The notes beneath the pieces are model-generated. The model was not told the origin of the DNA. It saw nothing but the letters and a program-made list of their open reading frames with translations, and did not search any database. Both the position numbers and the translations under genes were made by a program. Source: an uncultured Verrucomicrobiota bacterium (GTDB lineage: Bacteria > Verrucomicrobiota > Verrucomicrobiia > Limisphaerales > UBA8199). From it: 32,000 nt of DNA. Each line of letters starts with the position of its first letter. The first letter of the stretch is position 1. Shown one piece after another: positions 4,695-24,135 of this stretch. The stretch lies in the NCBI GenBank assembly GCA_942493075.1, contig OW818681.1:4156964-4188963 (forward strand), given 5' to 3'.

Positions 4695-5636
4695 CTAGAC
4701 GGGGTCGCGGAGGGGATACTTATTGGGCTGTGAGGGGCAGTTCCAGCGAATGTCACAGATGTCGCAGGTCTTATCGTCTGGCAAACTAGCGCCAGTTGGC
4801 GCGGGCCATGATTGGGTTTGGCAGCAGGTCGCAATGTCTGCCGCCGTGATGTCAAAGGCTGCCAGTGCCTGCTGAACAAGAACGGGGGTGCCGTCAGTTG
4901 CCACACCGGCGCGCATGAAATCCACCACGTGGACCGCCGGCAATGGGCGAGTGGTAATCGGAGGTTGGCCGGGCTTCTGTTTCAGTTCGTTGAGAAAATA
5001 CAAGACTGCCCGGCGGGGGTAGTTACCCGTTTTGACCCGATAGAGTTGAGCGTAGACACTCATCTGCCATTCATAATCCAAGAGGGATGTGGAAGAGAGG
5101 GGTGGTTTGTCCGTGCCCTTGTAATCCCAGATCTCCCTCTCCCCTACGGCATCTGAGGCCAGAACATCGACTACCCCTCGAAGGATATAGGTGCTCCGTT
5201 CTGATTCGAGGCGGTATTCGGTGTCCAGCACACGGGGATACAAGGTCGGGCCTTCGATGTTGTTGAAGGCTTTGAGCACCTCCCTGGCCTGCTCGGCCAC
5301 GCGAGGTGAGGCTGGCCGAACGCCGTGGGCGCGCATGGCGCGATCCACTTCGAAGAAGTAAGCATCAATGTCGGTATCCGTGGGAAACGTTCCAGGGGGA
5401 TGGCCGAACAAACCGCTGAAGTGACGATGACATCGGTCTAGCACCTGATGGATCATCTGGCCGAAGTAGACCTGAACGGCTTGGGCCGGAACGAAGCCAT
5501 CATTTCCGAAGTAGCCGTATTGGCGGCGACACTTGCGGAAAGAGATGATGTCGGATGTGAGACTGAGCCGGGGACGAATCAAGGTGGCAGCGCGGGGGGT
5601 GACGAGTCCCGCAGGAAATAGATTGGCAGCGCTCAT
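4695..5636 (-). CDS. Cas4/RecB-family PD-(D/E)xK nuclease with 4-Cys (Fe-S type) cluster
   Basis: ATG at 5636 overlaps the helicase stop (ATGA, 5633-5636). The longer start at 5681 in the ORF track would overlap the helicase by 49 nt. One N-terminal Cys (FRKCRRQYGY) plus C-terminal CDICDIRWNC (C-x2-C-x5-C). VVDVLASD...EIWDYKGT gives D...(D/E)xK. QMSVYAQLY matches the RecB-family QhxxY motif. Confidence 0.8.
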   Translation of the reverse strand: MSAANLFPAGLVTPRAATLIRPRLSLTSDIISFRKCRRQYGYFGNDGFVPAQAVQVYFGQMIHQVLDRCHRHFSGLFGHPPGTFPTDTDIDAYFFEVDRAMRAHGVRPASPRVAEQAREVLKAFNNIEGPTLYPRVLDTEYRLESERSTYILRGVVDVLASDAVGEREIWDYKGTDKPPLSSTSLLDYEWQMSVYAQLYRVKTGNYPRRAVLYFLNELKQKPGQPPITTRPLPAVHVVDFMRAGVATDGTPVLVQQALAAFDITAADIATCCQTQSWPAPTGASLPDDKTCDICDIRWNCPSQPNKYPLRDPV

Positions 5637-7894
5637 AAGACGTTTGTTCTGTGTTTCAGCCAACCCGCGCTGGGGCCGCACGGGATGGCGTCCTTGTTGA
5701 AGTGCGTGGCGGTTCCCAGGAAGATCAAAGCGTATTCCGCACGAGAGTAGGCGACGTAATACTGCCGGACCATATCCATTTGGGCGCGTTCGCCTTCGGG
5801 CCTACGGAGAAAACTTCGGGCCGGATTGGCGGGATATTGAGAGAACAGTGTTTCGAGGCGATGACTCTTGCCGACCTCGGCGCCTTCCCCCATGTGGCCC
5901 ACGAAGACATACGGGAATTCCAATCCTTTGGACTGGTGCATGGTCATGATAGGCACCATGCCCGCCGGGCATATCACTTCATCGTTTTCCTCATCGTTCA
6001 TGCCCACATCCATGATGTAGGTGAGGAAGAGATGGTAGAATGAGTTTAACCAACCGCCGACCACTTCGCCCGGGTAGGTGCTGGAGGCTCGCATGGTACC
6101 GCGAGTGACATTGGGCCGTGCCAAACCAGTAGCCGGATCCAAGACAGGGGTGGAGTTGTAAGCCTCCAAAAGCTTGGTCAGGCGTGCGAAACGAACCCGG
6201 CGCACGGGGTCGTTCTGCCACGTGGAGAACGGTTCACAACTCATTAGGTAATAGGTCAACTCTTGCAGGTTGCAGTCGAAGTATTCACCGGGTTTCGCGA
6301 GGATGGCGGCGCGGCATTGGGCGACATAAGCGGTGAGGGCGGGGTTGGCGGCCGCAAGGGCGTCGTAGGTGGTGCGAAAATCCGCCTCAGCGGCTGGAAT
6401 AGAATTCTTGTTAGCCGGATCCTGGGCGTAACGGCGTTGGGGGTCCACGACTGCCAGAATGGCACCCAGCAAACCCTGAACCTCCTCCTGCTCCATGAAG
6501 GTTTTGTTGCGCGGGTTATAGACGGAGAGCCCCCGTGCTTGCAAAGCGGCAGCAAAGGGGCCGGCATTGCGAGGAGACTCTTTGGTGCTCTTGAGCAGGA
6601 GACAGCACTCGTTGGGATCGTTTACCTTGCCAGTGCTGATCAAGTCAGCGACGGTTTGAGCAAACAGATCGGCGACGTCGCCGAGTTTAGCGCCAACGAG
6701 TCTGCCGATCGCCGGATAGGTTTGAGGAATGAGCTTGCGAGCAACGACCGGAGGTTTGGGCGACCGCGCTCCGGGGGTCAGCATTAATGGGAATGCGGTA
6801 ATGTAGTCGTTGATGAAATCAACGATATCGGTATGGGAGCGGAAGTTATCAACCAGACTGTAGCGCGCAACCGTGGAAGGATTCAGGCCGAGGAACGCCT
6901 GACAGGCTCGATCGAACGTGACCATGCACTCGACCGAGCCGCCCCGGAAGCGATACATGGCCTGGTCATCGTCACCCACAACAACGAGATTATGAGGCGC
7001 GCGACGGGCGAGTTGGAAGTAAATTTCCTCCTGCATGGGGTTGGTATCCTGGTATTCGTCCACGAGGACCCACTGGATGCCCGGGTTGGCAGGGGATCCG
7101 TCGCCGGTGAGAAAGGACTGGCCCAAGGGGGTGCTGAGGAAGCTCAGGAAACGGCCCTGGAGTTGTGAGAAATCGCAACGATAATTGTTAAGCAGGTGCT
7201 TAACATATTCGTCGTAGAGATCGGCCAACCGAGCCAATTGTCCGCCGACCGCCCGCAAGCCCGTGACTGAAACGCGATCTTCAACCATGCGGTTGAGCAG
7301 CACAATCAGGGCACTGGTGGTATTCCAACGGCTGGGGGGGTAAGCCCTCGTAGGTTGCCATTGCAACGGAGTAAACATCCAAGGGAAGGCGCCCCAGAAA
7401 GTGATTTCAGCGGGAGCATTGGGTGCCTTGACCAGACTCATGTGTTCGCGGACAAAGAGCGCCTGCTCGAACTCATCCATGAGGCGGACGTTCTGATAAT
7501 TGGGCGCGCGGAATTCCTGCAGGAGATCGTTGGCCAATCCATGCAAAGTGCCGACGCGCAATTTGGAAACGTCGATCACCACCAAAGAGGGATCGGCAGC
7601 CACCAGCCGAGCGCGGTAGTTAAGAATGCGGTCTTCGAGATTCTTAGCAGCCTTTTCTGTGAAGGTAGTGACAAAAACAGATTCCGGCGGGACGCGTTGG
7701 GCTTGCAGAGGATCGCCACTGACGTAGAGGAGGCGAAGGACCATGACGGTAAGGACTTCGGTCTTGCCTGAACCCGGGCCGGCGAGGACCCAGGCCGGGC
7801 CTTGCGGATGGCGGACAATGGCCTCCTGCTGGGGCGTGAGTTGTTTGGTTGCACCAGGCGGGTAGAGAATGGCGAGGAGTTCGGTGATGGTCAT
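5633..7894 (-). CDS. UvrD/PcrA/Rep-family SF1 helicase
   Basis: Walker A AGPGSGKTEV. Motif Ia TFTEKAAKNL. Motif II VLVDEYQDTN. Motif III VVGDDDQAMYRFRGG. DNFRSH. Motif V MHQSKGLEFPYVFV. Motif VI YVAYSRAEYAL. The ATG at 7894 overlaps the HTH gene stop (ATGA). Confidence 0.92.
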   Translation of the reverse strand: MTITELLAILYPPGATKQLTPQQEAIVRHPQGPAWVLAGPGSGKTEVLTVMVLRLLYVSGDPLQAQRVPPESVFVTTFTEKAAKNLEDRILNYRARLVAADPSLVVIDVSKLRVGTLHGLANDLLQEFRAPNYQNVRLMDEFEQALFVREHMSLVKAPNAPAEITFWGAFPWMFTPLQWQPTRAYPPSRWNTTSALIVLLNRMVEDRVSVTGLRAVGGQLARLADLYDEYVKHLLNNYRCDFSQLQGRFLSFLSTPLGQSFLTGDGSPANPGIQWVLVDEYQDTNPMQEEIYFQLARRAPHNLVVVGDDDQAMYRFRGGSVECMVTFDRACQAFLGLNPSTVARYSLVDNFRSHTDIVDFINDYITAFPLMLTPGARSPKPPVVARKLIPQTYPAIGRLVGAKLGDVADLFAQTVADLISTGKVNDPNECCLLLKSTKESPRNAGPFAAALQARGLSVYNPRNKTFMEQEEVQGLLGAILAVVDPQRRYAQDPANKNSIPAAEADFRTTYDALAAANPALTAYVAQCRAAILAKPGEYFDCNLQELTYYLMSCEPFSTWQNDPVRRVRFARLTKLLEAYNSTPVLDPATGLARPNVTRGTMRASSTYPGEVVGGWLNSFYHLFLTYIMDVGMNDEENDEVICPAGMVPIMTMHQSKGLEFPYVFVGHMGEGAEVGKSHRLETLFSQYPANPARSFLRRPEGERAQMDMVRQYYVAYSRAEYALIFLGTATHFNKDAIPCGPSAGWLKHRTNVL

Positions 7895-8184: not shown

Positions 8185-10050
8185 TCAAGCTCCATTCGTG
8201 CGTGTGATGAGCCCAAGGTTAGCAAGCGATTGTGTCACAGTCGCCAGCGTGCATACCTCGAAACCAGCTAGTTGGAATGCTTGCTTTTCCTCGGGGCCGT
8301 AACCTCCTTCTAAGACGGCGATGCCTTGCTTCACTTGATTGGATTTGAGTCCATCTGCCGATAGGCGGTAGCGGGCCATGGAAAGGTGTGCGCAAAACTC
8401 CCGCGTCTTATGTCCACAATCGGCTGGCGCCTTCATGCCTGATATGAAAACAGGGATTAATTGGTCCGCCCTGCGGACGCAAAGGCTTACGCGCCAGTTT
8501 CCGGCCTGGTCGCTTTGCGAGCAGTCCGTCACGAGTGTCGGTATTTCCTCGTCCTCTAGAACCGATACGCCATCTGCCCAGCGGCACTTCTTGAAGATAG
8601 CGCGCACTAGTTCTTCTAAGGGATTTATTGCCGATTGTGGGCCAATAATCCTGTGCGTCTTGCGGAGGAGGTAGCTCGTCCTCAGGTTCTGGGTGTCGAG
8701 GTCTTTAGGAATCAGACGGGCGATTGCGCGCAGCAGTAGGGCATATCGTGGCGCACCCTTTATGGGGCGTCTGTTGCTGTAGATCCCACGAATGTCATTG
8801 CGCGTTGCTTTTAGGGTGGCGTCTGAATTGTTGATCGCGGTTACGAGAGGGTAGGTGCCTAGGCCAGTCGCTTCGATTAACATCTCCGCAAACTGATTGT
8901 ACTCGTATGACGGTGTTACGGATGTGTACTGTGCCCAGAGTGCCTTAGCAGAAGCTTGGCGCAGCTTTGTGATGTCCTTTACGGAAGGTGCGCTTTTGAT
9001 TGCTTCCAGTGCCTCTAGGACTTGGGCCGAAGCGGCGAAAAGTGTGCGGGTGCGATCAAGGGCTTCCGAGAGAGCCTCGTGGTTGACCCCCAGGGTGTTT
9101 GCCTTCCGGGCAGCGAGGAAGAGTTCGAGGTCCTCTGAGGGGTGGGCAACAGTTTCGCCTGCCATGCCCTCCTCTATATGCTTGATGAGAAAGGCAAATT
9201 GCCCGTTTCTGTCCTCAATAGGAAGGCGGTGCAGAGCCTTTAGTACCTTGAGGTGGTTTGGGTCTTTAACTTCTATGGTCCATGCTTCTAAGGTCCTAAC
9301 AATCGCGTCGCATGAACCGAGTTCTGGGAACAGGAGACTTACGAGCGCGATTTGGAGCATCGCATTACGCAAACGCTCAAAGTTGTTCGACAAGTGAGTA
9401 TGGAGTTGAATTTTTGAGCAGAAGAGTCTCTCCGACGTCCAAAGGTCGAGTTTAGCATTTTTCGGGAAGGCCGTCGGAGTTAGTGGTGTGCGGATCGAGG
9501 CACGCAGTGGGGCGAGCGAGCCAAGATCGGTTTTGATGCTACGGAGCGCTGCGTGAATCTTATCTGTGCCGGTTACGCGTAGCGACTCGGCCCTGGATAG
9601 GTCTGCTTGTAGTTTCTGGTGGTTGAATAGAACGCATTCGTCGAACAGTTCGCGAAAGGAACGAAGAAAGTCGGGGTACCAACCGGCAGCGCGGTATTCG
9701 TTGCCTGAGAATTCTGCCTCAAATACTACGCATGTGCTCGTTGATTTTGGAATATAGCGTTTGAGGTCACACAGTTCTGAAACGGTTCTCCAAAATTTCG
9801 CGTGACTGGTCTCTTTGCTGTCCCAGTAGCAGACATGAAGGAAGTTCGAAGACGTTGTGTCGACAAGGAAGTCCGGGATAGTATAGATAAGCCGCTTATA
9901 CTGGTGGGGCTTGTGGCAGATTGTCGCGTGCTTGCAGAGGGATTGGCAGTTATGGCGCTCGCGATTGGGCTCGTACTCAATATTTCTGGTGTAAATGCCC
10001 TCGAGCGCCAACCACGTCAGCGCTTCGTAAAAATCAGCTCTGAAGCTCAT
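8185..10050 (-). CDS. 621-aa hypothetical protein, possible N-terminal PD-(D/E)xK nuclease domain
   Basis: ATG at 10050. I recognise no family. The N-terminus has a helix containing Glu (FYEALTWLALEG), then IPDFLVD, then 16 residues, then WDSKE (PD...DxK spacing). The rest looks helical. GC is visibly lower than in the flanking genes. Confidence 0.6.
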   Translation of the reverse strand: MSFRADFYEALTWLALEGIYTRNIEYEPNRERHNCQSLCKHATICHKPHQYKRLIYTIPDFLVDTTSSNFLHVCYWDSKETSHAKFWRTVSELCDLKRYIPKSTSTCVVFEAEFSGNEYRAAGWYPDFLRSFRELFDECVLFNHQKLQADLSRAESLRVTGTDKIHAALRSIKTDLGSLAPLRASIRTPLTPTAFPKNAKLDLWTSERLFCSKIQLHTHLSNNFERLRNAMLQIALVSLLFPELGSCDAIVRTLEAWTIEVKDPNHLKVLKALHRLPIEDRNGQFAFLIKHIEEGMAGETVAHPSEDLELFLAARKANTLGVNHEALSEALDRTRTLFAASAQVLEALEAIKSAPSVKDITKLRQASAKALWAQYTSVTPSYEYNQFAEMLIEATGLGTYPLVTAINNSDATLKATRNDIRGIYSNRRPIKGAPRYALLLRAIARLIPKDLDTQNLRTSYLLRKTHRIIGPQSAINPLEELVRAIFKKCRWADGVSVLEDEEIPTLVTDCSQSDQAGNWRVSLCVRRADQLIPVFISGMKAPADCGHKTREFCAHLSMARYRLSADGLKSNQVKQGIAVLEGGYGPEEKQAFQLAGFEVCTLATVTQSLANLGLITRTNGA

Positions 10051-10074: not shown

Positions 10075-10254
10075 TCACAACCGATCTTCAGGTGAATCTG
10101 CGTATTGCACCGGCAACGCCACGCCCTTATGACAGGCAGACAGAAGTCCAGATTCTGCGCCAAACCTATGCAATTCTCGTTTGAATGGCCAGATACCGTG
10201 AAAAGAGATGTTTGACAGTGAGTTGGTCTTGAGTGGGTATGTGGTTGGGTTCAT
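10075..10254 (-). pseudogene. Relic (or 59-aa mini-ORF) derived from the 3' end of a second herA-like gene
   Basis: Hand translation gives MNPTTYPLKTNSLSNISFHGIWPFKRELHRFGAESGLLSACHKGVALPVQYADSPEDRL*. The segment IWPFKRELHRFGAESGLLSACHKGVALPVQ matches the intact HerA C-terminus IFPFKRELQVMGIGQAILSASYKGVPLPVQ at 18 of 30 positions. The ATG at 10254 overlaps the 102-aa ORF stop (ATGA). The ORF is below the 60-aa cut-off of the supplied track. Confidence 0.7.
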
Positions 10255-10559
10255 TTATTCTTGAGGAATCCCGTAGGAACATACTTGCGCAGGTACTGGC
10301 GGTAGAGAGTTTTGAAGCGTTCTTGCGAACAAGAAAACTTGAGTGTAACCCGCAAGTGTTTTAGAAGGGCAGTGGGCGTCTTTAGGTTCGGACCGTAATG
10401 GTCAATCAGAAAGGCCATGACTTGGTGGTCCTCGAGCGATCGAGGATTGTGTCTGGTATTCGCTTTCATGGCTTTCAGAAGGAAAGAACGACAGCACGAC
10501 TGAGCCTGCTTTCGTGAGTGATGAGGGCGTCTTACCTTGGCTGTACCTCTACTTCGCAT
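10251..10559 (-). CDS. Small hypothetical protein (102 aa; may start at the internal Met MKANT, nt 10469)
   Basis: The ORF begins 5 nt after the herA-like stop. The C-terminal ~70 aa look protein-like (SLEDHQVMAFLIDHYGPNLKTPTALLKHL). I recognise no family. Confidence 0.45.
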   Translation of the reverse strand: MRSRGTAKVRRPHHSRKQAQSCCRSFLLKAMKANTRHNPRSLEDHQVMAFLIDHYGPNLKTPTALLKHLRVTLKFSCSQERFKTLYRQYLRKYVPTGFLKNK

Positions 10560-10564
10560 AAATG

Positions 10565-12355
10565 TCAGAATTCCGGAATTTGCACAGGCAACGGCACGCC
10601 CTTGTAGCTCGCCGAAAGTATGGCCTGACCGATCCCCATGACCTGCAATTCCCGCTTGAACGGGAAGATGTCGTTGCTGGCCGTGTGGACAGCGGCCTGG
10701 CGTTCGTCCTCGTTGCCGAGGGCCATGGTAATCTCCGTGTTGATCTGGCTGAGGATGCCTTGGTCAATTTCGGTGACCTGCTGCGAAACGACAGTGAGGC
10801 CGAGGCCGAACTTCCGGCCCTGGCGGGAGATGTCGCGGAAGACGGAACCGAATTTCATCCGGGCCGGATTCAAAATGGAGGGAGCTTCCTCGATGATGAT
10901 ATTGACGGCAGGAAGATCGTTGATGTTCCGCAACGTGCCGTCCGGCCCACGGTAAGGTGAATCCGGCGCGGACAACCGTTCCTTCAGGATGTTTTTCAGG
11001 GTGTCCTGCAGGGGAATATGGCGGTCAATCTCACCTGGTTGGCCGTTTGCGCCGACGAAACTTGGCCAGTCACGCGCGCTCTTGAGAGCCTTGCGAAGCG
11101 CAAAGATGGTGCGGGCAACGACGGTGGTCAGCAGAAACTGTTCGGTCTCGGTCATCAGAGACGTATCCACATCCAGCACCCGCCCACGTTCTAGTGCGAG
11201 GACGATGTCCGCCAACGAGGAACTGTATTGCTGGGCGTTGGGGACAAGGTTGGACCGGTTGCCGCTCAGGAAACCCAACCGGCGGTTGATGCCTGCCAGT
11301 GAGGTTTTGTGAATCACGTTGTCATCAGCGACGACATCGCCATTGAGCACACCGGAGATCCAGTTCTCACCCTGCATATCGCCTATGATCTCGGCGGCAG
11401 CAGACATGATATCGGTGAACTCCATGATGGAGATGATATCCTGCGGGGTGATGTCGCGCCGGTGGAGGCGAACGCGACGGCCGTGGGTGCCGATGACGGT
11501 ATCGGCCTGGATGGCGGTTTCATCACGACAGGAAAGGTAGAAGAAGGGTTCGACAAGGCCGGTGCGTTGCTCGGGGTTCATAGCCGCCACGATGCGGGTA
11601 ATGCCGCCGGGGGAACCGGGTTTCCATTTGGCGAACTCATCGTGCGGGTCCACGGCGAACAGTGAAACCAAACGGTCCTTGGGTCCCCACTGAGCGCGGG
11701 CCGTGCCGAACAGGCGGAGGTTATTGGCGTAGATGCTATCAATGAGCACCATGAGGTTGTTGCTCTTGCCCGTACCCGTCCGACCAAAGATGCCAAGGTG
11801 GTGCGCGAAGTATTCGCCGGGAATTGAGATCCTGACAGTGGACAAGGAATGCTCGCCAGCTAGGAGATTGCCGATGAAAACACCCGTGCCGAGTTGGGAT
11901 TGCAGGATAGCGGCGAGGCAGAGCTCCTGGCGTTGGGCGGCCTGCGGGCCGCCGAAACCAACCTTGTAAACTTTGGTGAGGTGGGCCGGAAGTTTGCGCG
12001 GCGTGCGGAAATGCCAACGGCCGTTTTCATCCACTTCGGCATAGCCAAGCAGAGAACCGGTAAGGCGAAGCAATTTATCGCGGTCGAAGTCATCCGCGTA
12101 AAAGGCATCGGCGAGAGAAATCTCGTTCTTGGCCATGAAGTCCATGTCCTCATCGCGGCGAAGGACGTTGGCGTATTCCGTCATGCGGAACAGGTAAACG
12201 CGGTCGCCGCCACGGTCGGACGGGATGAGAAAAAGGTCGCCGATAGAGGTATCGAGGTTGCGGGCGAATACCGTTATCTGGGTGGTAGAAGCCATGGCCA
12301 GCACGCCGAAAAACTGGTCCTGCGCCAACGTTTGGGTGAGTTCCTGGTAGGTCAT
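10565..12355 (-). CDS. herA: HerA/FtsK-superfamily ATPase (DUF87-type, HerA-like)
   Basis: Walker A GIFGRTGTGKSN. Walker B-like VNIIIEEAPS. About 600 aa. The ATG lies 3 nt after the NurA-like stop, which is the classical nurA-herA pairing. Confidence 0.85.
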   Translation of the reverse strand: MTYQELTQTLAQDQFFGVLAMASTTQITVFARNLDTSIGDLFLIPSDRGGDRVYLFRMTEYANVLRRDEDMDFMAKNEISLADAFYADDFDRDKLLRLTGSLLGYAEVDENGRWHFRTPRKLPAHLTKVYKVGFGGPQAAQRQELCLAAILQSQLGTGVFIGNLLAGEHSLSTVRISIPGEYFAHHLGIFGRTGTGKSNNLMVLIDSIYANNLRLFGTARAQWGPKDRLVSLFAVDPHDEFAKWKPGSPGGITRIVAAMNPEQRTGLVEPFFYLSCRDETAIQADTVIGTHGRRVRLHRRDITPQDIISIMEFTDIMSAAAEIIGDMQGENWISGVLNGDVVADDNVIHKTSLAGINRRLGFLSGNRSNLVPNAQQYSSSLADIVLALERGRVLDVDTSLMTETEQFLLTTVVARTIFALRKALKSARDWPSFVGANGQPGEIDRHIPLQDTLKNILKERLSAPDSPYRGPDGTLRNINDLPAVNIIIEEAPSILNPARMKFGSVFRDISRQGRKFGLGLTVVSQQVTEIDQGILSQINTEITMALGNEDERQAAVHTASNDIFPFKRELQVMGIGQAILSASYKGVPLPVQIPEF

Positions 12356-12358
12356 ATT

Positions 12359-13549
12359 CTAGATGCCAGTCATGTGAACCTGCTCGGGGTCTTCGAGAAA
12401 TGCGCCCCGCAGCAACCCTTCCTGCTGGGCGTACTGAAGGAGCAAATCGCGAGCGGTTTTGCGCTCCTGTTTGGTGAGGCTGGCGCGCCGATGGGCGGCG
12501 TGCATGGGATACGGGTAACCGTAACTGCGCACCTCATGACAGGTGAAGTCCAGCTCCTCAAAGAACCGTGCTTCTTTTTCATCGTCGCCGGCCAAATGGG
12601 TCTGCCACCAGGCAGCGTCCACGTCCACGCGCATGGGAAAGGCCGTGGCCTCGAACTTGAACAGGTAAGACACACTGAGTTTGGGTGGGATTTCCCGGTC
12701 TTTGAGGAAAGAGAGGGGCGTGTCACCTAAGGCCTCGGAGGGGAGACGCAAAAACCAGTGCGATTTGAGACCGTGTTTATCGCGGGCCAGCCGACCGATG
12801 AAATCGCCGTTGGGGATGTTGTGTGATTTGCACAACGCGACGATGCCGGTGTTTTGTTCGTTCGCCTTGGTGATCAGGTAGCGCTTCAAGAGTTCAGGCA
12901 GATAAGGGGAATCGCCGAGAAGGAAATAGACCAAGGACGTATCCATGATCAGATACCTGGGTTTCTGCTGAAGGAGATGAATGGCCATACCCAATTCCGC
13001 CAGCGAACGGAGGAGGTAAGCGTGCGTCGCAACCTGCGAAGCATGAGAGATGGCGAAGTTGGCCCAAGTCACCTGCGACGGCTTGAGCGACTTGCCAAAC
13101 TGAGAGTAAACGGCGCAATAGTCCGACTCTTTGACCAATTCTTCTAGGCCCAGTCCGACGAGCGACTCTAAAAATGTTTTGTAAGCATCGGTCAACGCCT
13201 TGGGTTGATCCTGCAAAACAATGTGGCGTTTCAGCAGTGGCCCAAGACCACCCACCGCCGCCATCTTGCTTTGACGGGCACTCTGGGTATCGTAGGTGAC
13301 GCCGGCCGCGGTGGCGAAATGAACGAACACATCATCTTGTTGGATGATGGGGAACTCTCCTGAACCATCCACGGCACAAATGCGAAAATCCTGATCGAGG
13401 GTCGTGGTGTGCCGATACGGTCGGATGCGCTGAGCAAGAGTGTTGATCTCCTTATCCGTGGGTTTTGCGCCCTCGATGGCTCGCTTGAACTGCAGAATTG
13501 CTGCTCGCGAGGAGTCCAGCAAAGCCCGGTCTAGGAGGTCGAAGTCCAT
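12359..13549 (-). CDS. nurA: NurA-like 5'-3' nuclease
   Basis: N-terminal ICAVDGSGE (the NurA DGS motif). A second LIMDTSLVYF motif stands in for DGSL. C-terminal YGYPYPMHAAHRRASLT fits the NurA GYPyxLxxAH pattern. It sits 10 nt downstream of the DpdA-like gene and 3 nt upstream of herA. Confidence 0.75.
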   Translation of the reverse strand: MDFDLLDRALLDSSRAAILQFKRAIEGAKPTDKEINTLAQRIRPYRHTTTLDQDFRICAVDGSGEFPIIQQDDVFVHFATAAGVTYDTQSARQSKMAAVGGLGPLLKRHIVLQDQPKALTDAYKTFLESLVGLGLEELVKESDYCAVYSQFGKSLKPSQVTWANFAISHASQVATHAYLLRSLAELGMAIHLLQQKPRYLIMDTSLVYFLLGDSPYLPELLKRYLITKANEQNTGIVALCKSHNIPNGDFIGRLARDKHGLKSHWFLRLPSEALGDTPLSFLKDREIPPKLSVSYLFKFEATAFPMRVDVDAAWWQTHLAGDDEKEARFFEELDFTCHEVRSYGYPYPMHAAHRRASLTKQERKTARDLLLQYAQQEGLLRGAFLEDPEQVHMTGI

Positions 13550-13559
13550 GATTACATGC

Positions 13560-15776
13560 TCAGTTTGGTGTTCCTGTGAGTTTGCTGAAAAGTCGGAAGA
13601 ACCACCAGGTATTGTGAAACCCCCTCCGCCGGTTGCGATTGTTGCGGCGGAAGATCACAACGTCGATACCGGTGGATTTGCAAACGGCGCAGGGACAATT
13701 GCGCCAGGGTGCATCTTCAAGAAGGCGGCGATAATGAGGCTCGTTGCGAGGGTCGCCCCCCATGAGTTGGTCATATGCGACCACCTGTTTGAGGGTCGAG
13801 TCGATGTCGAGTTTGCCTTGATCAAAAGCGCGTAACGCCTGAAGTGATTTCTGCTCCTCCTTGCGCAGTCGTTCGAGGGTCCACCCTTTCTGAGTTAACT
13901 TGGATGCCTTGGCCGTGAACGAATCGCCACCCTCGCGTTGGAGTGGAGGCACGCGAAGTGCCGCGTAACGCCATTTCTCCTCCAACTCTGCTTCTTCGCC
14001 ATTGCTGGTTTTGGGATTGAGCGTGGCGATAAACCGGTCCACGTCACCAACGTAGTAGTTTGAAGTGGCAGACAACCACGCCTGGCGGAGAAAACGAGCG
14101 CTATCAATGCTGTTCACCCCGGCATCAGAAAAGGCCGTGATGGCTTCAGGGCGGGCGACGCCGAAAAGGTGAATTTGAACGCCCGGTTTACGAATACGAT
14201 TTACGCCTTCGAGCACCGAAAGGATCTCGGTTGTCTTCGAGCGGACCAATCCGCCAAGAGCAATGTATTTGTATCCCATGTCCTGCTGCTGCTTGAACAT
14301 CTCGACTTGGGATTCGACGTCGTATCCCTGACAGCCAGCTATCGGAGTAAAATTGGATCCGCGCTTTTTGTGGGATTGGATAAAATCTTTGGCGTTATCG
14401 AGCGTGATTTTCCAGCGGCGCTTGCCTTCTGTTAAGTCATCTTCCTCATACGCTGCGAGGTGGTCGCGTTTCTCAAATAGGTCACGCGGATAGGTCCGCC
14501 CCTTGACCAAAGGGAGGCCTTCTTTCGTCAGACGTTCGAACTCATCTTTGCTGATGCGCTCTTCGCCACCGCCGGGTTTGAGGATGGCATAGACGGGGCG
14601 ACTCAGATGGGCGGGAATGATAAGGTGATCGATGGAGACGCCGTAGTCGAAATCCAATGATTCATAAAAATCCAATGTCTCCTCGGTCTCGTAGGGCGGG
14701 ACTTCCTCATCAATATAGTTGAATGCGCCACAATCGCCCATGACCGGGAAGTTGCGAGGCACGCGCACATGACGATGGATGCCAATCTTGCGGATGCGCT
14801 CTTTCTTGGTCTGATTATCTTCGATGACAGACTTGCTTACGAGAATGCCATCGTAGTTGGGCGATGGATAAATTTCATGGGCGTAAACATCATGAACGTA
14901 GGGGTCGCGGCCCTCTGTGATGCCGTCGCAGAGAAAATCATAATCCGGATCAACGCGGTCATCCCACTCGGGAATGAAGTATTTCATCCGAGCCTTGGGG
15001 CGGGGAGTGAAGAAGGTGAAGCGCTGGCGCTCCTGCTCCACCAGGTGTGGCGCTTTGGAGGTTTTGACAGATTCGCTTTTGGGTTGATCGAAAAACGCGA
15101 GGACATCGGTAGCCGGGTCGCGCAACTTCTGGGGCAAGTGCGGATCTCCAGCGAGCAACTTCAACAGGCGCGCCGCGAGTTCGCCTTTGAGCCCAACCAG
15201 CCCGCAGGAAAAGCGTTTGGCCTCCGGGTTGGAGAGGGTGACGACGCGGAGGTTGGGCAAGCGCGGAATCTTCTTGGCCGGTCCCTGACCGCAGAATAAA
15301 AGGGTGAGGCCACCGAACTTCACACTGGCATCGAGTTGGCAGGCTTGCAGGTAATTGTCGCCGAGCAAGATCAGTCCCAGATCGTAGGCCTGTGCGACGG
15401 TGTTTCGGAAATCCTGCGGGATATTGAGGGTATCGGCCCAGGAGCGGATCTCTTTGCTCCCCATGGTGGCAAAGGTGCACTCGTAGGGGGCGATCTTGCG
15501 ATTCTCGGGGATTAGGCCGTAGCCGGCGCTGAGAATGAAGAGTTGATGGTTGATTGTTGAGAGTTGAGAGACAGAACTGAGAGACTGGATGCCGCGCATG
15601 AGGCGGACGTGCTGCTCACCAGAGTACAGTTGCCCTGCGGGGGTCAGAAACTGCTTAAGTTCCCGTTCCTTTTGCCGCACGTGCGCAGGTCCCTTCTGAA
15701 AATCCGCGAGGCTGATGGAATTCTCAGGCGCATGGACCTTTTCGCCTGTGCAGGATGTAATGATTAGTAGCCTCAT
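13560..15776 (-). CDS. Fusion protein: N-terminal DUF6884-like domain + C-terminal TGT-superfamily (DpdA/archaeosine-TGT-like) transglycosylase
   Basis: I prefer the ATG at 15776 (MRLLIITSCTGEK); the track uses a TTG at 15785. The N-terminus has ITSCTGEK...QLYSGEQH...ILSAGYGLIPENRKIAPYECTF (DUF6884-like pattern). The C-terminal half has TGT landmarks: VMGDCGAFNY (cf. DSGGFQ), YIALGGLV, IHLFGVARPE...VNSIDSARF (catalytic Asp region), and the Zn motif CPCAVC...(x21)...H (CxCxxC...H). Confidence 0.8.
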   Translation of the reverse strand: MRLLIITSCTGEKVHAPENSISLADFQKGPAHVRQKERELKQFLTPAGQLYSGEQHVRLMRGIQSLSSVSQLSTINHQLFILSAGYGLIPENRKIAPYECTFATMGSKEIRSWADTLNIPQDFRNTVAQAYDLGLILLGDNYLQACQLDASVKFGGLTLLFCGQGPAKKIPRLPNLRVVTLSNPEAKRFSCGLVGLKGELAARLLKLLAGDPHLPQKLRDPATDVLAFFDQPKSESVKTSKAPHLVEQERQRFTFFTPRPKARMKYFIPEWDDRVDPDYDFLCDGITEGRDPYVHDVYAHEIYPSPNYDGILVSKSVIEDNQTKKERIRKIGIHRHVRVPRNFPVMGDCGAFNYIDEEVPPYETEETLDFYESLDFDYGVSIDHLIIPAHLSRPVYAILKPGGGEERISKDEFERLTKEGLPLVKGRTYPRDLFEKRDHLAAYEEDDLTEGKRRWKITLDNAKDFIQSHKKRGSNFTPIAGCQGYDVESQVEMFKQQQDMGYKYIALGGLVRSKTTEILSVLEGVNRIRKPGVQIHLFGVARPEAITAFSDAGVNSIDSARFLRQAWLSATSNYYVGDVDRFIATLNPKTSNGEEAELEEKWRYAALRVPPLQREGGDSFTAKASKLTQKGWTLERLRKEEQKSLQALRAFDQGKLDIDSTLKQVVAYDQLMGGDPRNEPHYRRLLEDAPWRNCPCAVCKSTGIDVVIFRRNNRNRRRGFHNTWWFFRLFSKLTGTPN
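15541..15568 (+). repeat. NGTTGAR heptamer micro-array (4 units) inside the DpdA-like CDS
   Basis: agttgat ggttgat tgttgag agttgag. The first 13 nt (agttgatggttga) are identical to 27151-27163. On the minus strand it is read in frame as part of SLSSVSQLSTINHQL. Confidence 0.7.
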
Positions 15777-16663: not shown

Positions 16664-16687
16664 TTTGCTTGATACTCCTGTGCTGGC

Positions 16688-18297: not shown

Positions 18298-19137
18298 CTA
18301 ATACCTATCCTCGTTCAAGCTCCTGTCGAGTTGCGCTGAGGCAACTATGGCGAAGGCTGAGTGATTGTGGATGCTTTCCTGGTTAACGGCGCGGACTTCG
18401 AACCAGGTGATGCGTTTGTCTTTCTTTAAGAGGTGGGCGGCGTTGCGGACGACGTCCTCGACGAAGACTGGGTTATCGAAAGCTTGCATGGTGACGTGGC
18501 GTTCGTCAGGACGTTTTAGAAGGGGATAGACGGGAGCGGATGCGGAACGTTCGGCGATATCAATGAGTTCCTCGATCCAGATGAGTTCCCATAGACCGTT
18601 CGTGCGCTTGGGACGGACCGTGACGGTGACCTGTCCCCGCTGATTGTGGGCACCGTAGTCACTGATTTCTTTGGAACAGGGGCAAAGGGTGGTGACTGGC
18701 ACTTTGACACGAAGAAGGAAGTCGTCCGTCTTTCCGTTGGACTGGCCGATAAAGGTGCAGCGGTAGTCCATAGGTGCCTGGGACCCAGACACGGGTGCGG
18801 TGCGGGTTAGGAAGTATGGAAATTCGACCTCGATGTGGGCGGCTTCCGAATCGAGATGCTGCTTAAGATCATGGAGGATGGCAGGCAGGGTTCGCATGGT
18901 TACCTCGCCCTGGTGCCGGCTGAGAATTTCGAGGAACCGGCTCATGTGGGTGCCTTTGAAGTGGTGCGGGAGGCTTACCGACATGGAGATAGTGGCGACC
19001 GTTTGTTGCTTTTGATTCTGACGGTCGAGGACGGCAATAGGAAAAGAGAGGTCGCAGATGCCAACGTTATCTATTGGCACGCCGCGGCGGTCTTTGGTTT
19101 TCTGGATGTCGGGTAACTGGCGAGCGGGAGATTTCAT
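18298..19137 (-). CDS. folE2: GTP cyclohydrolase I type 2 (FolE2/IB)
   Basis: IDNVG...LPHHFKGTHMSRF is the FolE2 signature. About 280 aa. It starts 3 nt after the queD stop. Confidence 0.88.
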   Translation of the reverse strand: MKSPARQLPDIQKTKDRRGVPIDNVGICDLSFPIAVLDRQNQKQQTVATISMSVSLPHHFKGTHMSRFLEILSRHQGEVTMRTLPAILHDLKQHLDSEAAHIEVEFPYFLTRTAPVSGSQAPMDYRCTFIGQSNGKTDDFLLRVKVPVTTLCPCSKEISDYGAHNQRGQVTVTVRPKRTNGLWELIWIEELIDIAERSASAPVYPLLKRPDERHVTMQAFDNPVFVEDVVRNAAHLLKKDKRITWFEVRAVNQESIHNHSAFAIVASAQLDRSLNEDRY

Positions 19138-19140
19138 GAA

Positions 19141-19596
19141 TCAATCCCAGTATTCGGCCCAGGAGCAACTGGTTTCCCAAAGGCGAACTTTCACTACGCG
19201 AACCGTGGAACGTAAAGGATAGGGTGCGGCGGGGTCGGCGGCGTAAGTCGCGAGCTTGGCTTTGACGACGTCATGGATTGTCTTGGCCATGACTTCGGTA
19301 GTGGGATCCATGCATTCAAAAGCCACCACGCGATCACCGAACGCAGCCTTCAGGGGTGTGAAGTTGGGGTCCTGAGTGTTGACGCAGATCGCGTGATCGA
19401 GTGTTTTAAGATAATCGTTAAGGCTGGCTTTGAGAGCCTTGAAATCACAGACCATCTCGTTGGAATCGAGCGTGTCCGCTTCAATTACGACTTCAACTTT
19501 GCGGCTGTGGCCGTGGGGGAATTTGCACAGGTCGGGGTGCTTTGAAAGCATGTGTCCGTTCTCGATTTCGAAGGTTTTACAGATGCGGTATGGCAT
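19141..19596 (-). CDS. queD: 6-carboxy-5,6,7,8-tetrahydropterin synthase
   Basis: FEIENGHML...CKFPHGHSRKVEVVI (His triad of the PTPS/QueD family). 151 aa. It directly abuts the queE stop. Confidence 0.88.
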   Translation of the reverse strand: MPYRICKTFEIENGHMLSKHPDLCKFPHGHSRKVEVVIEADTLDSNEMVCDFKALKASLNDYLKTLDHAICVNTQDPNFTPLKAAFGDRVVAFECMDPTTEVMAKTIHDVVKAKLATYAADPAAPYPLRSTVRVVKVRLWETSCSWAEYWD

Positions 19597-20289
19597 TTAG
19601 GTTCCTCGTGTGTGGCCAAAGAGTTCGACGTGAAGACGGTTGCAATAGCGGTAGCCATGGCGTTTGCAGACGTCCAAAAGGGTTTCGGCTCGACCGCGAA
19701 GCACGGCTGTTGATGTGCCCTCGGGCATGAGCAGGATTTTTGCTGGCGGGACTTTTTGACGGAGGTCGTGCAGGAGGGATTGGATTTCCTGAACATCCGA
19801 GGCGGAGTTGACTACGAACTTGAGCTGATATGTGTAGTGATCGAGCCACTCGGAGATTACGGCTGGGTGCCGCCTTAGGTTTTCATGCTTCTCGCGCCAA
19901 GCCGTCGGCAGCCGGTTATCCGGAGCTGAGTTGCTGAGCTTTGGACTGAGTGACGCGAGATCGCAGATGATGCCATTCGGCGGGACGGTTGCCGCCGTCT
20001 CGATGGTTATATGTTTCCCTGCCTGGCGAAGAGCTGCTGCGAGTTCGTGAATTCCCTTGGCGATCATCGGCTCGCCGCCGGTTAGAACGCAATGCTGAGC
20101 GGGGAAAGAATCCACCTTGCGGAGAATTTCGTCCGGAGCCATGTCTTTGCCTTCCGGGTCCCACGAGGCGTACATGGTGTCGCACCAGTTGCAGCGGAGG
20201 TTGCAACCGGAGGTCCGAATAAAAACGGACGGGACGCCCGTGAGTTCGCCTTCGCCCTGGATGGAATAGAATATCTCCGATATAAGCAT
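19597..20289 (-). CDS. queE: 7-carboxy-7-deazaguanine synthase (radical SAM)
   Basis: True start is the ATG at 20289 (MLISEIFYSIQGEGELTGVPSVFIRTSGCNLRCNWCDT). The 91-codon N-terminal extension in the track runs through queC and is rejected. Confidence 0.9.
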   Translation of the reverse strand: MLISEIFYSIQGEGELTGVPSVFIRTSGCNLRCNWCDTMYASWDPEGKDMAPDEILRKVDSFPAQHCVLTGGEPMIAKGIHELAAALRQAGKHITIETAATVPPNGIICDLASLSPKLSNSAPDNRLPTAWREKHENLRRHPAVISEWLDHYTYQLKFVVNSASDVQEIQSLLHDLRQKVPPAKILLMPEGTSTAVLRGRAETLLDVCKRHGYRYCNRLHVELFGHTRGT

Positions 20290-20290
20290 T

Positions 20291-20995
20291 TCAGGCCCCG
20301 ATGGTGGGAGCAGGCTTAGGCGGCAGTGGAGATGTTTCTGCGTAGGTGGTTGGGTCAGAGAGACCGGCGAGCATGAACGCCTCCCGACGCTCGACGCAAG
20401 TGCCGCAGGTGCCGCAGTGTATTGCTCCGCCCTTGTAGCAGGACCAGGTTTTGGAAAAATCGACGCCGAGCTCGTAGCCGCGGCGGGCGATTTCCGCTTT
20501 GGTGAAGCGAATGAAGGGGCGGAGAATCTGGATTTGGGCGTAGGTTCCAAGGCGGATGGCATCGGCCATGGCTTTCATGAAATCCTCGCGGCAGTCTGGA
20601 TAGATGGCGTGGTCTCCGGCGTGGGCAGCTATGACGAGGCCCTGGGCCTCAATCGATTCGGCAAACCCGCCAGCAATTGAGAGCATGATGCCGTTGCGAA
20701 AGGGAACAACGGTCTGCTTCATCGTTTGCTCCTCATAGTGACCGTCGGGGACAGTGCCACCTGACTTGAGGAGGTCAGATTTGAAAAGCTGGGAAACGAA
20801 GTCGAGTTGGATGGTACGATGGGAGATTCCGAGTTGGTCGCAGTGGTAGGCAGCGAAAGGGATCTCCCTGTGGTTGTGCTTGGAACCGTAGTCGAAGCTG
20901 AGGGCGCCGACAACTTGATAGGCCTGATTGGCTTCGTAGAGGGCGGCAACCGAGTCCATCCCACCGCTAACAAGAACTACGACTTGGGTTTTCAT
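20291..20995 (-). CDS. queC: 7-cyano-7-deazaguanine (preQ0) synthase
   Basis: True start is the ATG at 20995 (MKTQVVVLVSGGMDS, PP-loop SGGxDS). C-terminal Zn-binding CGTCGTCVERREAF. Confidence 0.9.
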   Translation of the reverse strand: MKTQVVVLVSGGMDSVAALYEANQAYQVVGALSFDYGSKHNHREIPFAAYHCDQLGISHRTIQLDFVSQLFKSDLLKSGGTVPDGHYEEQTMKQTVVPFRNGIMLSIAGGFAESIEAQGLVIAAHAGDHAIYPDCREDFMKAMADAIRLGTYAQIQILRPFIRFTKAEIARRGYELGVDFSKTWSCYKGGAIHCGTCGTCVERREAFMLAGLSDPTTYAETSPLPPKPAPTIGA

Positions 20996-20999
20996 CGCA

Positions 21000-21440
21000 T
21001 CATGAATGGAGAGTAGTGACCGGGTCTGGGTGCTCTGCAGTGACGGTAAGGGATAAGCCTCCTCGCGGAACAAATTTGCCTTCGATCTTTATGCGCCGTG
21101 GGCGGCAAGCCTTAACCAGGTCGTCGAGGACGCTGTTTATAACCTGCTCGTTGAACGAGTGCACGTTGCGGTACGAGGACAGGTAGAGCTTGAGGGACTT
21201 GGTCTCGATGCAAAGCTTGTCGGGGATGTAATCTACGAGAATCTCTGCGAAATCGGGCTGGCCGGTGACCGGGCAGAGGGAGGTAAAATCGGGACAGTCG
21301 AGACGGATGGAATAGTCGCGGTTCGGTTTGGGGTTTGGGAACGTTTCGATCGTGGCCGACTGCGGAGACTTGGGGAACGCCGCCTCGGAGTTTCCAAGAA
21401 GCGTCAGACTGGCGTATTTCTTATTTCGGGACCGTTTCAT
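21000..21440 (-). CDS. queF: NADPH-dependent 7-cyano-7-deazaguanine reductase (preQ0 -> preQ1), unimodular type
   Basis: True start is the ATG at 21440 (MKRSRNKKY). It has the catalytic-Cys motif SLCPVTGQPDF and the QueF motif IETKSLKLYLSSYRN. The upstream 163 codons of the track ORF are R/H/P-rich shadow sequence. Confidence 0.88.
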   Translation of the reverse strand: MKRSRNKKYASLTLLGNSEAAFPKSPQSATIETFPNPKPNRDYSIRLDCPDFTSLCPVTGQPDFAEILVDYIPDKLCIETKSLKLYLSSYRNVHSFNEQVINSVLDDLVKACRPRRIKIEGKFVPRGGLSLTVTAEHPDPVTTLHS

Positions 21441-21680
21441 TTCGTGGCCGTCAGCATGGCATTTTTCTTCGCAAGAGAAAATTGAAATCGCGCGAGGAAT
21501 GGAGGGTGGGCATACGGGCGGGAGGAGGGGGCAGTGCGACAGGGGGACGGGGGTAGGGTGTGACATTTGCTGGCATAACCGGTAGGATCGGGTATGCGAC
21601 AGAAGCGACTCGGCCCAAAACAGGCGGCACGCGGGAAGAATGAGGGGGATTTGTGGGCGCATGGTTACGGTCGGGCGGCG

Positions 21681-22649
21681 ATGGAACGGATGATGCGGAT
21701 TCATCGAAAGATCGAGGATCGCGAATACCCGAACTGCACCAAGATGTCGGCGGAGTTTGAAGTCAGCGTGCGGACGCTGAAGCGGGATATCGAGTTCATG
21801 AGGGATCGGTTGGAGTTGCCGATCGCTTTTGATGTGCCGAAGAATGGCTACTTTTTCACCAAGTCGGTGCCGCATTTCCCGAGGGTTCCCCTGACTGAAC
21901 GGGAGATTGTGGGGTTGTTCGTAGCGCAAAAGACGATCGCGCAGTATCAGGGGACTTCACTTCAGCCGGTTCTGGATTCCGCTTTCCGGAAAATGACGGC
22001 GCAATTGGATGATAGCGTGCAGTTCTCGCTTGATGGGGTGGATGAGGTGATGTCGATCCGTCCGTTTGCACCTGGGGATGCGGAGCTGGAGACGTTTGAG
22101 ATCCTGACCCGAGCGGTTCGCGAGCGGCGCGTGGTGCGGTTTGTGTATCGGAAGCATGGGGAGCAGAAGCAACTGCAGAAGTGTGTGCATCCGTATCGGG
22201 TGGCTTACGTGAATAATCAGTGGACGCTTTTTGCGCGTGACCCTAAGGCGGGTGCGCTGGTGCGGAAGTTCATCCTGGCCCGGCTGAGCAAGCCGGAGTT
22301 GTCGGCGGAAAAGTTTAGCGTTTCTGAGCGGTTCGATCTGGACAAGGAGTTGAGTGGCAGCCTGGGGGTGTTCAAGGGGAAGGATGATTACGAGGTGGTG
22401 GTGGAGTTCGATGCCTGGGGTGCGGATGATGTCCGGGGCCGGCTCTGGCATCCGAGCCAGGAGTTGACCGATCACCCAGGGGGCGGGCTTACCTTAAAGA
22501 TGCGTTTGAACAGTTTGGAGGAGGTGGAGCGGTGGGTGCTCGGTTATGGGAGGCATGCGACGGTTGTGGGGCCGGCGGAGCTGAGGGAGAGGGTGCGGGG
22601 TGTGGCCAGCGATTTGGTGAAGAGGTATGGGGGAAAAGCTAAAAGCTGA
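21681..22649 (+). CDS. WYL-domain transcriptional regulator (wHTH-WYL-WCX architecture)
   Basis: MERMMRIHRKIEDREYPNCTKMSAEFEVSVRTLKRDIEFMRDRLELPI is a DeoR/HTH_11-like N-terminus. The central part has VVRFVYRK...VHPYRVAYVNNQWTLFA (WYL-like SH3 strands). The start is ambiguous: ATG 21594 is in frame, and I prefer 21681. The gene is divergent from queF. Confidence 0.8.
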   Translation: MERMMRIHRKIEDREYPNCTKMSAEFEVSVRTLKRDIEFMRDRLELPIAFDVPKNGYFFTKSVPHFPRVPLTEREIVGLFVAQKTIAQYQGTSLQPVLDSAFRKMTAQLDDSVQFSLDGVDEVMSIRPFAPGDAELETFEILTRAVRERRVVRFVYRKHGEQKQLQKCVHPYRVAYVNNQWTLFARDPKAGALVRKFILARLSKPELSAEKFSVSERFDLDKELSGSLGVFKGKDDYEVVVEFDAWGADDVRGRLWHPSQELTDHPGGGLTLKMRLNSLEEVERWVLGYGRHATVVGPAELRERVRGVASDLVKRYGGKAKS

Positions 22650-24116: not shown

Positions 24117-24135
24117 AGAGGGGATTGGTTAGGGG

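Follow-up and report, generated by a model that had tools for sequence, protein, structure and literature searches.

A DpdC::DpdA transglycosylase fusion linked to NurA and HerA: a candidate Dpd-type DNA modification-restriction island with an exchanged restriction module

Why should a protein with the landmarks of a guanine transglycosylase be encoded in one operon with a NurA-like nuclease and a HerA-like ATPase? The question is raised by a stretch of 32,000 nucleotides (nt) from an uncultured Verrucomicrobiota bacterium (assembly GCA_942493075.1, contig OW818681.1, positions 4,156,964 to 4,188,963), here called the window, in which a first-pass annotation made from the letters alone had noticed this combination and proposed a role in DNA modification or defence. 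We find that the 738 amino acid (aa) protein at the head of the operon is a fusion of a DpdC-type domain with a DpdA-type domain (dpdC::dpdA), and that it recurs with the same partners across many phyla. The best explanation, to which we give a probability of about 0.62, is that the locus is a Dpd-type 7-deazaguanine modification-restriction island in which the restriction module has been swapped; Dpd systems use 7-deazaguanine to mark the DNA of their own host. The whole gene set, from dpdC::dpdA through the nuclease genes and including the que operon, lies on the minus strand; coordinates are collected in Table 1.

The assignment of the C-terminal half of the fusion to the tRNA-guanine transglycosylase (TGT) superfamily, and within it to DpdA, holds up well. 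The protein exceeds the cut-offs of the Pfam TGT family (32.6 bits; cut-off 26.3) and of the NCBIfam DpdA equivalog NF041059 (419.3 bits; cut-off 200), scores 380 bits with the PADLOC DpdA model, and a profile of its family matches nearly the full length of the solved Salmonella enterica serovar Montevideo DpdA, 7UI4, at an E-value of 9e-119. Its start codon at 15776 is fixed by homologues sharing the N-terminus MRLLIITSC, and the motifs GDCGAF, ALGGLV, SIDSARF, CPCAVC and GFHNT lie at aa 347, 506, 556, 694 and 719. Residues were mapped by hand from the alignment to 7UI4 and the roles described for that enzyme (PMC10164549): the general acid/base D95 corresponds to D348 of the fusion (in GDCGAF), the nucleophile D256 to D558 (in SIDSARF), the base-recognition residue D130 to D383, the Gly-rich loop G206-G207 to G508-G509 (in ALGGLV) and the structural Zn site to C694/C696/C699/H721, while H181, the second base-recognition residue, is replaced by Gln (Q483). 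All of the mapped fusion residues, Q483 and the Zn site included, are invariant in 23 diverse homologues. The tRNA TGTs likewise carry Gln at the position of DpdA H181. To judge from its sequence, this half of the protein is a genuine DpdA-type DNA transglycosylase, and the domain looks active. Two insertions in the window protein, at about aa 392-452 and 577-600, are missing from most relatives.

The N-terminal domain was correctly placed in DUF6884 (Pfam, 37.6 bits; cut-off 30), which is given as the Pfam domain of dpdC (PMC11888242). The PADLOC DpdC model covers fusion aa 2-175 (profile positions 3-187 of 299, E 3e-10), and BLASTP aligns aa 1-112 with residues 1-112 of P0260, a full-length DpdC (PADLOC DpdC 113 bits, positions 3-312), at 26% identity. 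Both signature motifs of DUF6884, CxxxK and LSAxxG (PMC11701544), are kept as C9-K13 and L82-G87 and are invariant across the 23 homologues. The remainder of the same model, at positions 219-296 of 299, is matched by the 102-aa open reading frame (ORF) downstream of HerA (E 1e-7), residues 36-92 of which align with DpdC P0260 residues 256-312 (40% identity, E 4e-14). Because this small ORF matches the C-terminus of a full-length DpdC, we read DpdC as split at the window locus, its predicted core being fused to DpdA and its C-terminal domain of ~60 aa forming a separate gene. By homology a DpdC equivalent is thus present in the window as a fused DUF6884 domain plus a C-terminal-domain ORF, which contradicts the initial view that none was present. 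An exhaustive HMMER search with the small ORF returned nine relatives, seven of them 51-103 aa long and one of them DpdC P0260; its true start is probably M31 at 10469, giving a product of 72 aa. It has no match among plasmids. It is missing from every one of the 80 related loci described below and is lineage-specific.

The four genes are spaced exactly as first reported, with 10 nt between the fusion and the NurA-like gene, 3 nt between the latter and HerA, and 5 nt between HerA and the 102-aa ORF. Profile hidden Markov models (HMMs) matched the TGT, DUF6884 and DUF87/HerA families here and left the NurA families unmatched: neither as a single sequence nor as a 28-sequence profile did the 396-aa protein find a sequence-profile match in Pfam, PADLOC, NCBIfam or PDB sequences. 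It was structure prediction that resolved what the profiles had missed. The AlphaFold (AF2) model, built with 28 homologues (predicted local distance difference test score, pLDDT, 87.7), gave 12 top Foldseek matches that are all NurA or NurA-like chains (E 2.5e-9 to 8e-4), including Sulfolobus solfataricus NurA 2ygk (E 2.5e-9), Thermococcus kodakarensis HerA-NurA 9x1n, Pyrococcus furiosus NurA 3tal and TM1739; among the NurA matches the best TM-scores, 0.52/0.57, were those to chain G of the TdpAB complex 8wfd. The original recognition of this ORF as NurA is therefore upheld, and a homologue 34% identical to it is named NurA by PGAP. Of the candidate catalytic residues, D61 is invariant and E185, D203 and H353 show conservation of 90% or more; they lie on the expected secondary-structure elements of the model, and the C-terminal His residues are conserved as well; on sequence grounds the nuclease looks functional.

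The neighbouring ATPase was likewise well named. It passes the cut-offs of Pfam DUF87 (PF01935, 46.7 bits) and HerA_C (PF05872, 23.8 bits), its Walker A motif GRTGTGKS, the landmark noticed at first sight as GRTGTGKSN, spans G191-S198 (K197), and a Walker B-like IIIEE lies at aa 486-490. The solved sequences nearest to it are those of archaeal HerA (4d2i and 9x1l). The PADLOC HerA models match only its C-terminal ~90 residues, and it fails the NCBIfam HerA equivalogs, with a best score of 51.8 bits against a cut-off of 970 and, for HerA_antiphage_2, 42.8 against 850.

Whether these genes form one system can be judged from their company elsewhere. The fusion family numbers 1439 matches, the best 120 listed being nearly all full length and 41-82% identical to the window protein. 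Relatives were located at 269 places in a one-genome-per-species collection, and 80 of these loci were taken with 10-kb flanks, searched with all window proteins and their ORFs clustered; 76 of the 80 carry a fusion ORF and form the basis of the co-occurrence counts. A recurrent order, [folE2/queC/queE/queD], DpdC::DpdA, NurA-like, HerA, a protein of ~600 aa that we call X, a UvrD-like helicase and a PD-(D/E)XK nuclease, was found in at least seven phyla (Chloroflexota, Planctomycetota, Verrucomicrobiota, Pseudomonadota, Acidobacteriota, Bacteroidota and Bacillota). A NurA-HerA pair is present in 14 of the 76 loci, which bears out the suggested co-occurrence of TGT, NurA and HerA across genomes; X joins the pair in 11 and, of those, UvrD as well in 10, and the gap from the fusion to NurA is at most 11 nt, or an overlap, in 10 of the 14. 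In the closest relative (P0002, with a fusion 82% identical) the order reads queF-C-E-D, a Tiamat-like gene, the fusion, NurA, HerA, X, a helix-turn-helix gene, GmrSD_N, UvrD and PD-(D/E)XK. Seen from the NurA side, 4 of 4 context look-ups fell on DNA that carries DpdA; two of the four concern NurA-like homologues in metagenomes, and both of these stand between the fusion and HerA.

This recurrence bears on the possibility that the window is a mere defence island in which DpdC::DpdA, NurA-HerA, UvrD/PD-(D/E)XK and Tiamat are independent and have come together by chance. The window is indeed a hotspot of defence and mobile-element genes (TmtA, a WYL regulator, RadC and DUF6573), and its modules differ in their degree of divergence. 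However, the same order with near-zero gaps recurs in at least seven phyla, all the NurA-like and X genes whose surroundings were looked at have DpdA-type genes for neighbours, and neither family has a match as an independent system in defence-system or Pfam libraries. We assign a chance assembly the lowest probability of the readings considered here, and a very low one. Two further candidates were tried and rejected. An independent NurA-HerA-X module had been suggested by two cyanobacterial plasmids that carry NurA-like, HerA and X genes, but DpdA/TGT genes are present on both of them. A phage-borne anti-restriction module was set aside because the family is almost absent from viral sequences, a relative being encoded on just 4 contigs out of the 2.9 million in IMG/VR, with a single weak match among 50,697 phage records.

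The comparison also shifts the boundary of the unit. It had been drawn at 10251-15776, whereas the conserved unit extends beyond those coordinates to X, the UvrD-like helicase and the PD-(D/E)XK nuclease. The accompanying statement that no DpdD-K equivalents are visible stands in so far as PADLOC finds no DpdD-K match in the window, but it missed these three conserved genes, whose products are, on sequence comparison, not DpdD-K homologues and yet travel with the system. Across the 80 related loci the helicase is present in 21, usually immediately before the PD-(D/E)XK gene, and the nuclease in 19. The 621-aa protein of the window, which the HMM built from locus cluster c13 matches at E 1.4e-13, belongs to the X family as a divergent member and has 19 homologues. 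Its AF2 model (pLDDT 89.1) has no significant match in the PDB; the partial matches are restriction-endonuclease-like folds, and X may contain a PD-(D/E)XK-like domain. In one related locus (L083, 5794-11824) NurA and HerA are missing, and X is accompanied by a DUF6884 protein that is not fused (248 aa), a TGT of 479 aa and a DEAD helicase. This minimal-looking version of the system ties X to DpdA independently of NurA-HerA.

The source of the inserted base bears on a second alternative. The complete precursor operon noted 2.5 kb upstream of dpdC::dpdA was confirmed by Pfam matches of all five genes, about 29 of the 80 related loci have que genes adjoining the fusion, and YhhQ-type preQ0 transporters are linked to it in others. 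Such linkage of preQ0 synthesis or uptake to the fusion indicates stoichiometric base insertion. It argues against a scheme without self-marking in which the transglycosylase would target invading DNA, marking it or removing its bases for NurA-HerA and UvrD/PD-(D/E)XK to process, as a modification-triggered (type IV-like) or base-excision defence; the related proposal that the TGT domain acts as a base-excising effector is disfavoured on the same grounds. In favour of an attack on invading DNA, a DUF6884-family member, YfjM, has been reported among DNA-lesion interactors (PMC11701544), end-resection enzymes suit nicked or abasic DNA, and a type IV-like gene, GmrSD_N, lies inside the system of the closest relative. 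Yet the base-exchange residues are shared with a DpdA for which modification of the host's own DNA is known, and canonical Dpd genes (DpdE/F/G, DndB/DpdB-like) stand beside the same fusion in sister clades, so that we consider this scheme very unlikely.

It is the sister clades that suggest how the system is built. When the fusion proteins are arranged in a distance tree, loci with NurA and HerA fall largely into one clade, with an additional Firmicute branch. Cyanobacterial clades combine the fusion with a DndB-family gene, accompanied by UvrD/PD-(D/E)XK, by DpdE-DpdF-DpdG or by a 1650-aa protein; the DndB family is the DpdB family (PMC11888242). In Firmicutes the partners of the fusion are a DpdH-like ATPase, a preQ0 transporter of the Vut_1 family (YhhQ-type) and a further TGT paralogue. 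Since the same fusion has different partner modules in sister clades, we picture one modification enzyme with swappable restriction modules. Exchange is also suggested by two loci (L081 and L087) whose NurA, HerA, UvrD and PD-(D/E)XK proteins are 58-76% identical to those of the window and whose fusion is far more divergent (42-43%): either the writer gene or the effector module appears to have been exchanged. A second, short TGT/DpdA-like paralogue (~300 aa), often between DEAD-box helicase genes, was seen in many loci of the family, among them L045, L064, L067, L070, L072, L073, L080 (Firmicutes) and L085 (6159-7082); as it accompanies the fusion, such loci would encode two transglycosylases. 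A contig assigned to an Asgard archaeon (L065, a Candidatus Hodarchaeota metagenome-assembled genome, 2596-7599) carries a DpdA relative that is preceded by folE2 and queC and followed by UvrD/PD-(D/E)XK. By tblastn it matches the DpdA half alone (query residues 254-734), and the locus reflects either a binning artefact or a gene transfer into archaea.

The distribution of the partner genes raises the possibility that HerA, with or without NurA and X, belongs to the modification machine. Of the 76 loci, 19 have a DndB-like gene, 14 have NurA/HerA and none has both; moreover, NurA-HerA-X occupies the slot right after the fusion that holds c5-DndB-c12 in cyanobacteria, and UvrD/PD-(D/E)XK is common to both types. 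HerA might then replace the DpdB ATPase, which is the main idea of the first-pass annotation; its ATP-driven action would give DpdA access to the guanines of duplex DNA and allow them to be flipped, and the UvrD-like helicase and PD-(D/E)XK nuclease alone would restrict. The tight coupling to the fusion, with gaps of 10 and 3 nt, and the ATPase requirement of DpdA in vitro would fit. However, a nuclease with conserved catalytic residues has no obvious use in a modification accessory, and known HerA-NurA-type pairs (archaeal repair, TdpAB) degrade DNA. DndB and HerA are both missing from Firmicute and other fusion clades, so that the fusion may do without an ATPase of its own, and the minimal-looking locus makes do with DUF6884, TGT, a DEAD helicase and X. 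The exclusivity itself tracks clade boundaries and may therefore reflect shared ancestry only. On balance we think it unlikely that HerA stands in for DpdB. A bolder version, which we hold to be just as doubtful, is that DpdC::DpdA, HerA and NurA form one physical machine, in which the HerA hexamer threads duplex DNA past transglycosylase and nuclease, supplies DpdB-like ATP-driven DNA opening, and picks "modify" or "degrade" in the manner of Type I/III restriction-modification enzymes. If true, a HerA-NurA complex would have been re-purposed as writer-loader and eraser for the 7-deazaguanine mark, and the mutual exclusivity of DpdB and HerA/NurA would be accounted for.

We favour the Dpd-type island with an exchanged restriction module. 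Homology, gene linkage and residue conservation are what the analysis shows; from them we infer the chemistry, the way self is told from non-self and the parts played by the single proteins, as follows. FolE2, QueD, QueE and QueC, as their homology suggests, would make preQ0. The DpdA domain would swap guanine in host DNA for preQ0 through the double-displacement reaction of TGTs, with D558 as nucleophile and D348 as general acid/base, and the fused DpdC-type domain would turn the DNA-bound preQ0 into 7-amido-7-deazaguanine (ADG), possibly assisted by the stand-alone DpdC C-terminal domain. DpdB would be unnecessary, or another motor would take over its ATPase role. By context and structural analogy, the HerA hexamer would feed DNA to the NurA nuclease, and the pair would act with protein X and the UvrD-like helicase/PD-(D/E)XK pair in the joint degradation of unmarked DNA, a task that falls to DpdD-K in Salmonella and to the HerA/NurA-like TdpAB complex in the phosphorothioate Tdp system. 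We place NurA-HerA, X and UvrD/PD-(D/E)XK in the restriction arm because sister clades can have DpdE/F/G in place of this partner module, because NurA keeps its candidate catalytic residues, because a nuclease has no obvious role in modification, and because the nearest solved analogue is TdpAB, which serves Tdp as its restriction arm.

Several points weigh against this assignment. In the one Dpd system that has been reconstituted, DpdA depends on the ATPase DpdB (PMC10164549), and the window is without this partner: the window ORFs scanned with Pfam, PADLOC and NCBIfam gave no match to DndB, ParB or DpdB, and tblastn with the DndB-like proteins of the related loci was negative as well, in agreement with what had been noted at the outset. 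NurA and HerA could be modification accessories and not restriction factors, given the DndB-like slot in cyanobacterial relatives and the mutual exclusivity. The NurA-type catalytic residues of the window protein are a candidate assignment drawn from conservation, and protein X has no recognisable function in structure and profile searches. The window queF carries the NADPH-binding QueF motif ETKSLKLY and its product should, by this motif, be a true nitrile reductase; with such a member, the que operon may be a housekeeping queuosine operon, or the inserted base may be preQ1. Finally, three non-conserved ORFs part the que operon from dpdC::dpdA. These ORFs (223, 243 and 232 aa; 15992-18053, minus strand) lie between folE2 and dpdC::dpdA and have no homologue in any of the 80 related loci, which makes them look like an insertion peculiar to this lineage. 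The first two match nothing in Pfam, PADLOC or NCBIfam and the third nothing in Pfam or PADLOC; the 223-aa ORF weakly matches phrog_11836 (function unassigned).

How far, then, does the locus depart from known systems? With the Dpd system of S. Montevideo (dpdA-K) it shares an orthologous DpdA with the same catalytic Asp residues and Zn site, DpdC-type chemistry (by homology), linked preQ0 genes, and the logic of a modification arm joined to a multi-gene helicase/nuclease arm. In the window, in contrast, DpdC is fused to DpdA with its C-terminal domain as a separate ORF, DpdB is lacking, DpdD-K are replaced by NurA, HerA, X, the UvrD-like helicase and PD-(D/E)XK, and H181 of DpdA has become Gln. 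We regard the locus as a Dpd variant and not a canonical dpd island, because DpdB and DpdD-K were not found in the window, but as nearer to canonical Dpd logic than first appeared, because DpdC and downstream components are present after all.

TdpABC resembles the window in encoding a HerA-like hexamer and a NurA-like nuclease beside a single-enzyme DNA-modification gene (tdpC), but its mark is a phosphorothioate made by TdpC, against the 7-deazaguanine predicted here; there is no sequence-level similarity, and Tdp is without X or UvrD/PD-(D/E)XK genes. Tdp is a modification-linked system (An et al. 2025, cited in PMC12914056). The scanned window ORFs showed neither a PAPS-reductase/DndC-like domain nor any other domain for sulfur modification; the modification enzyme here is DpdA. 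The archaeal and bacterial HerA-NurA end-resection complex shares the NurA fold, a HerA with DUF87 and HerA_C, and adjacent coupled genes; the window differs from it in having no Mre11-Rad50 neighbour, in placing the pair in a DNA-modification operon, in a HerA far under the NCBIfam equivalog cut-off and in a NurA without a sequence-profile match. HerA-Sir2 and HerA-DUF4297 also pair a HerA ATPase with an effector in a defence context, but there the effector is not NurA and there is no DNA-modification link, and the PADLOC HerA matches of the window protein are partial.

The pairing of a TGT with HerA has itself been noticed before, in the BREX-related capture (BRC) system, where a TGT homologue goes together with a HerA/FtsK translocase and both DpdB and DpdC are lacking (PMC12839542). 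BRC lacks NurA, the DpdC domain and UvrD/PD-(D/E)XK, and none of its core components (PglZ, BrxC-like DUF6079, STAND NTPase, DUF4007 and GNAT) is present in the window, domain scans for the first four having been negative. In the full-text literature covered, which did not extend to Thiaville 2016, Yuan 2018 or the 2024 MMBR review, we found no description of a DpdA-HerA, NurA-deazaguanine or HerA-NurA-transglycosylase combination, as the first-pass annotation had supposed for TGT, NurA and HerA. As far as that literature goes, the DpdB-less, NurA-HerA-linked DpdC::DpdA fusion is a previously undescribed Dpd variant found in many bacterial phyla.

Table 1. Position, strand and basis of assignment of features in the window
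Feature	Position	Strand	Basis
Tiamat-type TmtA, sacsin-like ATPase + NOV_C, 1531 aa	97..4692	(-)	PADLOC TmtA 1497.6 bits
PD-(D/E)XK nuclease, 328 aa, paired with helicase	4695..5681	(-)	Pfam PDDEXK_1 E 2e-17
UvrD/PcrA-type superfamily 1 helicase, 753 aa	5633..7894	(-)	Pfam UvrD-helicase E 1e-44
Protein X, 621 aa, fast-evolving ~600-aa component	8185..10050	(-)	HMM of locus cluster c13
Small ORF, stand-alone DpdC C-terminal domain, 102 aa	10251..10559	(-)	PADLOC DpdC, HMMER
HerA/FtsK-type hexameric ATPase, 596 aa	10565..12355	(-)	Pfam DUF87 and HerA_C, PADLOC HerA models
NurA-fold nuclease, 396 aa	12359..13549	(-)	AF2 model and Foldseek; D61 in VDGS, C-terminal GYPYPxHAAH
dpdC::dpdA fusion gene, 738 aa	13560..15776	(-)	Pfam, PADLOC, NCBIfam, match to 7UI4
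DpdA DNA-guanine transglycosylase domain, aa ~262-738	13560..14993	(-)	Residues mapped onto S. Montevideo DpdA
DpdC-type (DUF6884/YaaA-superfamily) domain, aa ~1-210	15147..15776	(-)	Pfam DUF6884, PADLOC DpdC, BLASTP
preQ0/preQ1 precursor operon queF-queC-queE-queD-folE2	18298..21440	(-)	Pfam
folE2	18298-19137	(-)	
queD	19141-19596	(-)	
queE	19597-20289	(-)	
queC	20291-20995	(-)	
queF	21000-21440	(-)	
WYL/WCX-domain transcription regulator, divergent from queF	21594..22649	(+)	Pfam WYL and WCX, PADLOC WYL

Beyond the conserved unit, the TmtA gene begins 2 nt past the PD-(D/E)XK gene. TmtA-like matches were obtained by tblastn in three related loci (L010, L013 and L015), and in the P0002 locus a giant TmtA-like gene stands directly upstream of the fusion. 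TmtA may be a recurrent partner of the system rather than a chance neighbour; it is possibly system-associated and possibly a mere neighbouring defence gene. At the other end, regulators of the WYL/WCX type often control defence islands, and it is possible that the one divergent from queF controls this island; it was not found in the related loci. Just outside the island lie DUF6573 and RadC-like JAB genes (23661-24657, minus strand), of types met in integrative and conjugative elements. The G+C content is about 0.52-0.57 within the island and about 0.59-0.62 at the DUF6573/RadC genes, and together these genes and the rise in G+C hint that the island sits on or beside a mobile element. Scans of the window with tRNA and Rfam models were empty, giving neither a preQ1 riboswitch nor a tRNA integration site, and promoter and terminator counts were not above those of shuffled sequence.

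How Dpd tells modified from unmodified DNA, and which of its proteins cuts, is still described as open (PMC5699537), and the rationale for the complexity of the system has been called not understood (PMC10164549). The variant described here offers a simpler object of study, with one fused writer and a structurally tractable HerA-NurA effector, and solved homologues are at hand for two of its components: 7UI4 for DpdA, and NurA and HerA-NurA complexes for the effector. Because there is no DpdB in the window, it can reveal whether DpdA works alone, which is relevant to the labelling of DNA with DpdA enzymes. Pfam and PADLOC include neither protein X nor the NurA-like protein, and both are candidates for defence-system annotation. 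More broadly, one family of modification enzymes is combined with at least four effector modules, in parallel to the Dnd, Ssp and Tdp phosphorothioate systems.

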